UHGV virus genome: UHGV-0089955
DNA: 17,733 nt
Source: a virus
Reading direction: 5' to 3' (one strand)
Shown here: positions 13,173 to 14,185 of the stretch, piece after piece
Layout of the letters: every line of letters begins with the position of its first letter
Position numbering within the stretch: position 1 is the stretch's first letter
Position numbers and translations under genes: made by a program
The notes under the pieces: model-generated
Told to the model about the DNA's origin: nothing
Database searches by the model: none
What the model saw: only the letters and a program-made list of their open reading frames with translations

Positions 13173-13361
13173 ATGAACATTTATTTCAGAATAGTTATAT
13201 CACTGGCAATTATCACATGTATTTACGGATTAATCGTTCCGGCCCTCATATCAATGAAGGATACGGTAGCAGTGATTTCTGGCTTTGCTCTGGCGTGTCT
13301 GACCCCGCCCTGCATTTATGCCATTTATAAGGGTCTTTCTTTTTCTAAGGATAAAAGATGA
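13173..13361 (+). CDS. small two-helix membrane protein (62 aa), candidate partner of the SPFH protein
   Basis: AGGAGGA upstream of ATG; two hydrophobic segments; stop overlaps the SPFH gene start (ATGA at 13358-13361). Confidence 0.55.
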   Translation: MNIYFRIVISLAIITCIYGLIVPALISMKDTVAVISGFALACLTPPCIYAIYKGLSFSKDKR

Positions 13362-14185
13362 AAAAATTACTTTTTGCTTTAGCCCTTGTTCTGCCGACCA
13401 TTGGCCTTGTCGGTTGCGATCGCGTTGAGCCTGGTAATGTGGGCATCAAAGTAAACAAACTGGGCGACGATAAAGGCGTCGGTGAAGTGGTCGGTGTTGG
13501 GCGCTACTGGACGGGATGGAACACTGAGGTTTACATATTCCCGACCTTTAAGCAGATGAAGACCTACGATGATCCATTCAGTTTCCAGATGAGTGACGGT
13601 ACAACCATCGGCTATCACATCGGCGTGGCCTACAAAGTTGATCCATCCAAAGTTACCACAGTCTTTCAGACCTACCGCAAAGGCGTGGACGACATTACCG
13701 ACACCGACCTGCGCCAGAAGATAGCCGACGCACTCAACCGACTGGCCAGCAAAATGACCTCCGACAAATTTATCGACGGCGGCAAGTCTGAGCTGCTGGA
13801 TGCAGCTCTTAAAGACATTCAGGAAGAAATGACGCCCATCGGTATTCAGGTAATGAGCCTCTCATATGTGGGTAAGCCGGAGTACCCGCCTACTGTTATC
13901 GACAGCATTAATGCCAAAGTCACGGCGAACCAGAAAACCCTGCAACGCGAGCAGGAAGTAAAACAGCGCGAAGCGGAAGCCAACATGTTGCGCGCGGAAG
14001 CTGCCGGACAGGCAGATGCGATTCGCACAAAAGCCCAGGCCGAAGCCGATGCTATTCGTTTACGCGGTGAAGCTCTGCGCCAGAACCCCGGTGTTATGGA
14101 GCTGGAAGCCATCAACAAGTGGAACAGTACACTGCCGCAATACATGACCAGCGGTGCCAACACACCATTTATTCAGGTTAAGTAA
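13358..14185 (+). CDS. SPFH/band-7 (prohibitin/HflK-like) domain lipoprotein, 275 aa
   Basis: Signal peptide with lipobox LVGC (Cys20); central SPFH-like core; C-terminal Ala/Glu/Gln-rich predicted coiled coil (QKTLQREQEVKQREAEANMLRAEAAGQADAIRTKAQAEADAIRLRGEA) typical of HflK/C- and YqiK-type proteins; SD AAGGA upstream. Confidence 0.7.
   Translation: MKKLLFALALVLPTIGLVGCDRVEPGNVGIKVNKLGDDKGVGEVVGVGRYWTGWNTEVYIFPTFKQMKTYDDPFSFQMSDGTTIGYHIGVAYKVDPSKVTTVFQTYRKGVDDITDTDLRQKIADALNRLASKMTSDKFIDGGKSELLDAALKDIQEEMTPIGIQVMSLSYVGKPEYPPTVIDSINAKVTANQKTLQREQEVKQREAEANMLRAEAAGQADAIRTKAQAEADAIRLRGEALRQNPGVMELEAINKWNSTLPQYMTSGANTPFIQVK

Follow-up and report, generated by a model that had tools for sequence, protein, structure and literature searches.

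A widespread phage gene pair for a two-helix membrane protein and an SPFH lipoprotein, carried between the immunity region and the integrase gene of a lambdoid prophage

Described relatives and anatomy of the pair

Gene pairs in which a small membrane protein is encoded directly upstream of a lipoprotein with an SPFH (Band_7) domain form a very large annotated phage family, recognised in the PHROG database as PHROG 1130 (membrane protein) and PHROG 200 (lipoprotein); its members include phiP27 L05, the "serine protease" of Shiga toxin (Stx) phages of the Stx2a and Stx2d types, P88 gp11/gp12, the SPFH protein of P1 variants, N4 gp19/gp20 and, as distant members, MbpV/MbpS of Kayvirus phages. 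The pair analysed here occupies positions 13173–14185 on the plus strand of a 17,733 nucleotide stretch of viral DNA (UHGV virus genome UHGV-0089955), called the window below. It is an ordinary member of this widespread family; the two genes, their overlapping start and stop, the lipobox, the SPFH core and the C-terminal KWNG motif are common to the window pair and the others, and nothing essential differs, the partner and signal peptide occurring in several exchangeable types.

Full-text literature searches found no tested function for this SPFH family, only annotations and hypotheses, which supports an earlier note on the window, made from its sequence alone, whose author knew of no described function for such a pair. 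The authors of a 2026 paper on an N4-like phage state that why an SPFH lipoprotein occurs in a phage genome "remains unclear" (PMC13239085). An untested suggestion, made for a satellite prophage of Pseudomonas (PMC4936722) and for the Burkholderia phage CSP3 (PMC10269572), is that such proteins influence the lysis-lysogeny decision through HflKC and FtsH; because this idea was already in print and the pair belongs to so large an annotated family, the novelty implied by the earlier note was overstated. For Kayvirus phages it has been suggested that MbpS may aid Sec-dependent export of Tgl and that MbpV is holin-like (PMC7150955). The only experimentally tested prophage SPFH protein found in our literature search is PM0222, an HflK/C-like protein of a Pasteurella multocida prophage that is reported to be a virulence factor associated with outer-membrane vesicles and acting via TLR1/2 (PMC9872710); it may or may not belong to the family of the window protein.

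The two open reading frames (ORFs) of the window pair encode proteins of 62 amino acids (aa; 13173–13361, plus strand) and 275 aa (13358–14185, plus strand). An AGGAGG Shine-Dalgarno sequence stands in front of the first at 13164–13169, and the two genes share an ATGA at 13358–13361, both features being read directly in the sequence; at this junction GAT AAA AGA TGA, which ends the 62-aa gene (stop at 13359–13361), lies over ATG AAA AAA TTA, which begins the 275-aa gene (ATG at 13358–13360), an arrangement of the kind expected for translational coupling. The ORF coordinates and the ATGA overlap given in the earlier note, and its call of a lipoprotein, are confirmed. Since both proteins match PHROG families (phrog_1130 "membrane protein" with E = 1.5e-23 and phrog_200 "lipoprotein" with E = 3e-113 in profile searches), chance can be ruled out as the origin of either ORF.

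The 62-aa protein has hydrophobic segments at residues 7–23 and 32–48, a short polar loop between them and a basic C-terminal tail, and its hydrophobicity, its PHROG profile match and the alignment of its relatives all point to a hairpin of two transmembrane (TM) helices. The distribution of charge at its two ends, an Arg at the N-terminus and Lys, Lys, Lys and Arg at the C-terminus, predicts an N-in/C-in topology. Between the helices the motif P-x-h-h-S-x-x-(D/S)-(S/T), which reads VPALISMKDT in the window protein, is kept among the partners. Equivalents of the gene are present at about 4006–4194 of phiP27, in Stx2 phage records and in P1 variant MH422554. It is left unannotated in many public records, and in those of phiP27 and the Stx2 phages the stretch is entered as "none" or under a neighbouring feature.

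The 275-aa protein begins with MKKLLFALALVLPTIGLVGC, a signal peptide that ends in an LVGC lipobox (13358–13417, read from the sequence) with Cys20 as the predicted site of lipidation and Asp21 next to it. An Asp at position +2, directly after the lipidated Cys, retains a lipoprotein in the inner membrane, and by this rule the protein is predicted to stay there; a signal peptide with lipobox and an Asp at +2 are also found in the lambdoid, P2-type and P1-type copies. Residues 22–208 (13421–13981) match the Pfam profile Band_7 (PF01145) with E = 7.6e-31 and 107.9 bits against a cut-off of 23.6, so the SPFH core that the earlier note had proposed from the sequence alone was recovered by profile search. 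In an AlphaFold2 model (monomer only, from an alignment of 26 family members, mean predicted local distance difference test score (pLDDT) 78.5) this region is an alpha/beta SPFH core with pLDDT 80–95, and residues 178–242 (13889–14083) form a single 65-residue helix that covers the Ala/Glu-rich stretch, for which a coiled coil had been suggested, and aligns to the coiled-coil region of HflK. As modelled, this helix would be the coiled-coil wall element of SPFH cages. Family comparison identifies a C-terminal motif, LEAINKWNSTLP in the window protein (14102–14137), with the consensus hEAIxKW(N/D)GxLP, which is conserved in relatives as distant as Ccr10 (Caulobacter) and phage K (Staphylococcus); it has low pLDDT in the monomer model, whose last 24 residues (pLDDT below 50) are a disordered tail.

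The best Foldseek match of the model in the PDB is HflK (7vhq_E, E = 7e-14), followed by HflC, prohibitin, erlin and stomatin and, further on, by QmcA-YbbJ (8z5g), flotillin and the major vault protein; identities are 13–19%, and HflK/C, prohibitin, erlin, stomatin and flotillin are matched at a Foldseek probability of 1.00. The full-length assemblies among these matches are all ring- or cage-forming SPFH proteins. A sequence search of the PDB found only HflK and a prohibitin coiled-coil fragment (E = 2e-4 to 6e-3). Membrane attachment at the N-terminus followed by a C-terminal coiled-coil helix, as in other SPFH proteins, is predicted here too, and the 275-aa protein is a bona fide SPFH protein. 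It is not an HflK or HflC orthologue, because its NCBIfam scores lie far under the equivalog cut-offs (25.2 bits against 134.4 for TIGR01932, HflC; 22.8 bits against 159.4 for TIGR01933, HflK). Band_7 is its sole Pfam domain, and no peptidase domain was found; the name "serine protease" in the phiP27 and Stx-phage records is a propagated mis-annotation.

Among bacterial systems the closest likeness is to HflK/HflC, with which the window protein shares the SPFH fold, the long coiled-coil helix, an N-terminal anchor, a bulk that lies outside the cytoplasm and its best PDB matches; it differs in having a lipid anchor in place of a TM helix, in being phage-encoded, and in being the product of a single SPFH gene with a 62-aa hairpin as its partner rather than one of two paralogues. 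HflK/C are oriented towards the periplasm, and QmcA and YqiK face the cytoplasm. The parallel that the earlier note drew with NfeD-SPFH operons (QmcA-YbbJ, YqiJK and Pyrococcus PH1510/PH1511) holds for the operon logic, in that a membrane-protein gene is coupled to and co-transcribed with an SPFH gene, and fails for homology: the window SPFH domain is exported, and its partner matches no Pfam family and has neither a soluble domain nor room for the NfeD OB-fold (PF01957). No NfeD match was found among 23 divergent partners at E ≤ 10 in Pfam, either. The likeness is thus one of logic and not of membership, and as a system the pair is a variation on the theme of an SPFH protein with a membrane partner, in which the SPFH protein is exported and lipid-anchored and the partner is a minimal hairpin. 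MbpV-MbpS of Kayvirus phage K resembles it in having a small TM protein with a charged tail directly 5' of an SPFH protein with the C-terminal EKWNG motif; it forms its own transcription unit, and has only 25% identity, a Gram-positive host, a 102-aa partner with one TM helix, no canonical lipobox and lysis genes as neighbours. T4 Imm and Sp, Ltp of Streptococcus phage TP-J34 and T5 Llp, exclusion proteins that are expressed early, are likewise phage-made small proteins of the inner membrane or extracytoplasmic lipoproteins that act on the envelope; the analogy is functional only, since none has an SPFH domain and no sequence or profile similarity to them was found (Pfam, E ≤ 10). In particular the partner has no Imm_superinfect match at that threshold, and searches against solved structures gave no match for it.

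Pairing, spread and exchange of the module

Pairing was measured at 236 loci, which represent 87 distinct upstream variants, with 826 other ORFs of at least 150 aa from the same loci as the control. A small protein with one to three (mostly two) TM helices ends no more than about 40 nucleotides (nt) from the SPFH start in 83 of the 87 variants (230 of the 236 loci), and 33 of the 826 control ORFs (4%) have such a neighbour. Synteny of the two PHROG members is found in lambdoid, P2-like, P1-like and N4-like phages, and the pairing holds in N4-like, Seunavirus, Pokkenvirus, Bruynoghevirus, Burkholderia, Caulobacter and Kayvirus phages. The small ORF lies directly 5' of the SPFH gene, overlapping or abutting it, in P88 (gp11/gp12), a P1 variant (where it is 78 aa long and unannotated), the P2-like prophage of UTI89, N4-like phages (gp19/gp20), Piffle, a Burkholderia phage, KV2023, Ccr10 and phage K (MbpV/MbpS); in SSE121 the two-TM gene is one gene further upstream. 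The 23 divergent partners align without gaps through the first TM helix, the loop motif and the second TM helix.

The SPFH protein has relatives in 718 clusters of a large protein collection at E ≤ 1e-5, the best 120 of which are 74–99% identical and come from Escherichia, Shigella, Salmonella, Klebsiella, Citrobacter, Enterobacter and related genera. The survey of carriers and their positions that the earlier note had proposed found the gene in 535 of 5426 complete E. coli genomes (about 10%, by megablast) and relatives of the protein in 660 of 50,697 phage records (by tblastn). Many unrelated phages have the pair among their early genes. The E. coli matches include 418 chromosomal places and 198 on plasmids of about 90–100 kb, which are P1-like phage-plasmids. 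Identity in the tblastn search falls from 97% in phiP27, 96% in Stx2a/2d phages and 91% in P1-like phages to 61–73% in N4-like phages, 48% in Seunavirus SSE121, 36–39% in phages of Stenotrophomonas, Pseudomonas, Burkholderia, Erwinia and Salmonella, and about 25% in Caulobacter phiCbK-like phages, Kayvirus (phage K) and haloarchaeal tailed viruses. The 62-aa partner was found in only 25 phage records by tblastn and in only 27 clusters among 1.84 billion representatives by a single-sequence phmmer search, and the window-type partner with its signal peptide is present in 218 E. coli genomes; the small partner evolves fast.

A fold search in BFVD found SPFH folds in many phages and giant viruses. 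Kuttervirus phages encode an SPFH lipoprotein of a different kind (in PhiSH19 at 1141–1932, minus strand), which has an LSGC lipobox, lacks the KWNG motif and is not immediately preceded by a TM partner; acquisition of exported SPFH proteins by phages therefore appears to have happened repeatedly. The PhiSH19 gene lies beside a "superinfection exclusion protein", which is soluble and acidic, and this association was rejected as a guide to the window pair.

The pair behaves as a mosaic cassette. When 164 enterobacterial loci were compared with the window, the mature part of the SPFH coding sequence was common to all 164 and the window-type small ORF was present in 80; both flanks were shared with the window at only 17 loci, and at 47 the pair was present with both flanks different (the phiP27 type). 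The phiP27 match spans the Shine-Dalgarno sequence (13169) to just beyond a hairpin that follows the SPFH gene (14214), whereas in P1-type and P2-type copies homology begins at the lipobox (13406–13412) and ends at about 14152. Judged from these alignments, the lipobox region (about 13406–13412) is a recombination break-point, and because P1- and P2-type homology starts there, the partner and signal peptide are exchangeable separately from the mature SPFH protein.

In the P1-type copy the 78-aa partner (3731–3967 of its record) overlaps the SPFH start (gene at 3948–4775) by 20 nt over a run of seven A residues, GAAAAAAAC. A 347-aa protein with eight member sequences is an in-frame fusion of the two-TM hairpin and the SPFH protein; it is consistent with one A fewer in this run, and could reflect a sequencing error, a pseudogene-type indel or slippage.

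Prophage setting and position in other phages

The prophage in the window is lambdoid, of the type represented by phiP27 and the Stx phages, and its integration site is yecE; an E. coli chromosome matches window positions 9000–17733 at 95.8% identity. Pfam, PHROG and the annotation of this relative agree on a cI/LexA-like repressor at 10139–10831, an excisionase at 16067–16321 and an integrase at 16355–17641 (all plus strand), and the pair thus lies between the immunity region and integrase, as the earlier note had placed it. The plus strand of the relative encodes, in order, the LexA/cI-like repressor, a helix-turn-helix (HTH) protein, small ORFs, a ParE-like ORF, a hypothetical protein, the pair, an ORF6N anti-repressor-like protein, a beta-clamp-like protein, excisionase and integrase, and then reaches yecE; its minus strand carries lysis genes, a large DUF6645 protein, two tRNA-Arg genes, a Q-type antiterminator, a toprim protein, a DEAD-box helicase and a cro-like regulator.

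Directly behind the repressor gene is a terminator-like hairpin (10850–10867, plus strand) with a 7-bp stem of which 5 are GC pairs and a T-run tail, TTTTTTTTTG, which may mark the end of the immunity transcript. It is followed at 10899–10927 by a strong sigma-70-like promoter on the same strand, TTGACA-17-TATTAT, that agrees with the consensus at 11 of 12 positions and is probably the analogue of pL, driving the early-left operon that contains the pair. A simple consensus scan found no other promoter-like or terminator-like site on the plus strand from this promoter to the pair, and no promoter or terminator belonging to the pair itself; most simply, the two genes would be transcribed as part of the early-left operon under repressor control. 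Eight nt after the SPFH stop is a GC-rich hairpin (14193–14213, plus strand; dG -14.4 kcal/mol, z -2.2) that has no U-tract and is inside the cassette common to the window and phiP27.

Other temperate lineages place the pair similarly. P2-like phages (P88 and the UTI89 prophage) have it in the early operon between cox and replication gene A, and P1 variants have it between dmt and ban. In reference P1 (NC_005856, 68651–71008) this dmt–ban slot, under C1/Op72 (Pban), carries tRNAs, plp/upl and the TerB-like tciABC; the slot between the C1-controlled Pban/Op72 and ban varies among P1-like phages. In N4-like phages the pair is just downstream of the RNAP2 genes, between annotated terminators, and in phage K mbpV-mbpS is its own unit between lysK and tgl with terminators on both sides. 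N4-like phages, Seunavirus, Bruynoghevirus and Kayvirus are strictly virulent carriers, and in the three temperate lineages the pair occupies repressor-controlled early operons, not self-transcribed moron slots. As far as gene order can tell, virulent carriage together with these repressed operons argues for a role in lytic development over a lysogeny-specific or lysogen-protecting one.

Several neighbours of the pair deserve mention in their own right. The first gene after the pL-like promoter (10968–11387, plus strand) encodes a 139-aa HTH protein whose best PHROG is "CII-like regulator"; it stands in the position of lambda N, so that the early-left operon opens with a DNA-binding regulator and no recognisable antiterminator. 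Immediately 5' of the SPFH module a 72-aa ORF (12493–12711, plus strand; "ParE family toxin-like" in the Prokaryotic Genome Annotation Pipeline (PGAP) annotation of the E. coli relative) overlaps by 4 nt a 134-aa ORF (12708–13112, plus strand; phrog_1886), and these may constitute a second coupled pair; neither had a PADLOC match. Downstream in the same operon, a 189-aa protein (14975–15544, plus strand) weakly resembles the DNA polymerase III beta clamp (Pfam DNA_pol3_beta_2, E = 0.005; TIGR00663, E = 5e-4; PGAP "beta clamp domain-containing protein"), but its best PHROG, phrog_3007, is "RusA-like Holliday junction resolvase", so that the annotations conflict, and a clamp-like protein of half size is unusual. 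On the minus strand, the Q-type antiterminator gene (4747–5562) has two tRNA-Arg genes downstream of it (3295–3371 and 3385–3461, with the anticodons TCT and TCG), and after these comes a 662-aa protein (334–2322; phrog_143, DUF6645 in the E. coli relative), a layout of Q, tRNA-Arg and large protein that is that of Stx-converting phages but without stx genes. Between Q and the tRNAs is a 314-aa ORF on the plus strand (3666–4610; phrog_7003).

Possible functions of the module

The reading we prefer, with a confidence that falls somewhat short of even, is that the pair makes an HflK/C-like, periplasm-facing cage early in lytic growth, which reorganises or protects the inner membrane; its structural part, taken alone, is more likely than the whole. 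Together the two genes would be a membrane module that is complete in itself and moves horizontally. The 62-aa protein would enter the inner membrane as a helical hairpin, and the 275-aa protein would be exported, lipid-modified at Cys20 and, with Asp at +2, probably held on the periplasmic face of that membrane, a topology like that of HflK/C and unlike that of QmcA or YqiK. There its long helix and C-terminal motif would let it assemble into a ring or cage enclosing a patch of membrane, with the hairpin as its integral-membrane partner; such assembly seems most likely because every structurally solved full-length SPFH protein does so. Being transcribed with the repressor-controlled early-left operon, the module would be made on induction or infection and not in a quiescent lysogen. 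Its likeliest job would then lie in lytic growth, when it would reorganise or protect the infected cell's inner membrane, for example by shutting out or limiting additional damage to the envelope or additional entry of DNA, or by sequestering some conserved membrane machine of the host. A role specific to lysogeny is less probable, and the membrane-based exclusion or lysogeny-tuning role that the earlier note had considered is weakened, where it would be specific to lysogeny or protect the lysogen, by the virulent carriers, the repressed early operons and the lack of a PADLOC match.

Several observations weigh against this preferred reading. The promoter scan was a simple consensus search, and a weak internal promoter active in lysogens is possible. 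An outer-membrane location is possible as well, because an Arg follows Asp21 and may weaken Lol avoidance and because the +2 residue varies in the family (Tyr in N4-like copies; Glu, Ser, Asn or Gly in other relatives). Relatives that lack a lipobox are no evidence for anchoring in the inner membrane, since several have plausible signal-peptidase-I sites (ALA|S, ASA|E), and so they indicate export only. The Pasteurella protein PM0222, which may or may not be related, was found in outer-membrane vesicles (PMC9872710). Finally, no defence or superinfection-exclusion model matches the pair (PADLOC; Pfam, E ≤ 10), PADLOC-DB v2 giving 0 defence families for both proteins and five neighbouring proteins.

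That the protein is a mimic of HflK/C, whose cage would enclose or perturb FtsH or HflKC from the periplasm and so shift the turnover of CII/CIII-like or membrane substrates, seems to us unlikely, as does the tuning of lysis-lysogeny or the host takeover that would follow. Lambda carries an FtsH inhibitor, cIII, in its early-left operon, and the window pair is in the operon where lambda has cIII, with no cIII-like PHROG found there. HflK and HflC are its best PDB sequence and fold matches, NCBIfam gives weak matches to both, the predicted periplasmic orientation equals theirs, and the same proposal is in print for other phage SPFH proteins (PMC4936722, PMC10269572). The likeness is, however, generic to SPFH proteins at 15–19% identity, with prohibitin, erlin and stomatin scoring equally; the NCBIfam scores are 23–25 bits against equivalog cut-offs of 134–159; there is a single SPFH gene and no HflK/HflC pair; and the module is also found in obligately lytic phages, for which a lysogeny decision is irrelevant. 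A bolder version of the preferred reading, in which an exported SPFH cage nucleated by the two-TM hairpin is a widespread module for the early capture of a host inner-membrane machine, FtsH or another, we regard as doubtful.

A part in lysis timing or export, either with the TM protein as a holin or antiholin contained by an SPFH scaffold or with the scaffold organising Sec export of lytic enzymes, is quite improbable. The partner does resemble class II holins (about 60–80 aa, two TM helices, basic C-terminal tail), and phage K has mbpV-mbpS between lysK and tgl, where the Kayvirus authors noted the holin likeness and suggested help with Tgl secretion (PMC7150955). In the Gram-negative phages examined, however, the pair is outside the lysis cassette and in early regions, the E. 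coli relative encodes a class II holin and a lysozyme of its own downstream of Q, and only 1 of the 23 divergent partners matched a holin family, at E = 0.044, which is chance level; membership in a holin family is not supported. Nor is the pair a two-component spanin (Rz/Rz1), since a periplasmic domain is missing from the TM protein, the large lipoprotein bears an SPFH domain, and the early-left operon is far from the holin and lysozyme genes of the E. coli relative.

Least probable, and in our judgement very unlikely, is a moron expressed in the lysogen for superinfection exclusion, abortive infection or a surface or vesicle lipoprotein that alters the host-pathogen relationship: PHROG 1130 is categorised as "moron, auxiliary metabolic gene and host takeover", the cassette travels between unrelated phages, in P1 variants it stands in place of the tellurite/colicin-resistance-like accessory cluster tciABC, and PM0222, which may be unrelated, is a reported virulence factor via TLR1/2 (PMC9872710), but there is no PADLOC match, the consensus scan found no own promoter or flanking terminators such as classical morons have (the hairpin after the stop having no U-tract), the repressed early-operon position is consistent across lineages, and virulent phages, which have no lysogen to protect, carry the pair.

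The pair is neither surprising nor a new entity, and it is a good candidate for follow-up because of its broad distribution and its occurrence in model phages: about 10% of complete E. coli genomes carry it, as do P1-like phage-plasmids, Stx phages and the phages N4 and K. For annotation, the label "serine protease" in Stx-phage records is corrected, and a small gene that is often left unannotated is added. Structures of SPFH cages (HflK/C, prohibitin, erlin, stomatin, flotillin, QmcA-YbbJ) are now being determined while their roles in bacteria are still largely unclear, and a compact two-gene phage version could give a tractable handle on SPFH function. For the phages themselves the module is a candidate early host-takeover or membrane-protection function, and hairpin-nucleated SPFH cage capture, if true, would be a previously unrecognised and widespread mechanism of host takeover from the periplasmic side, used from enterobacterial podoviruses to staphylococcal myoviruses.

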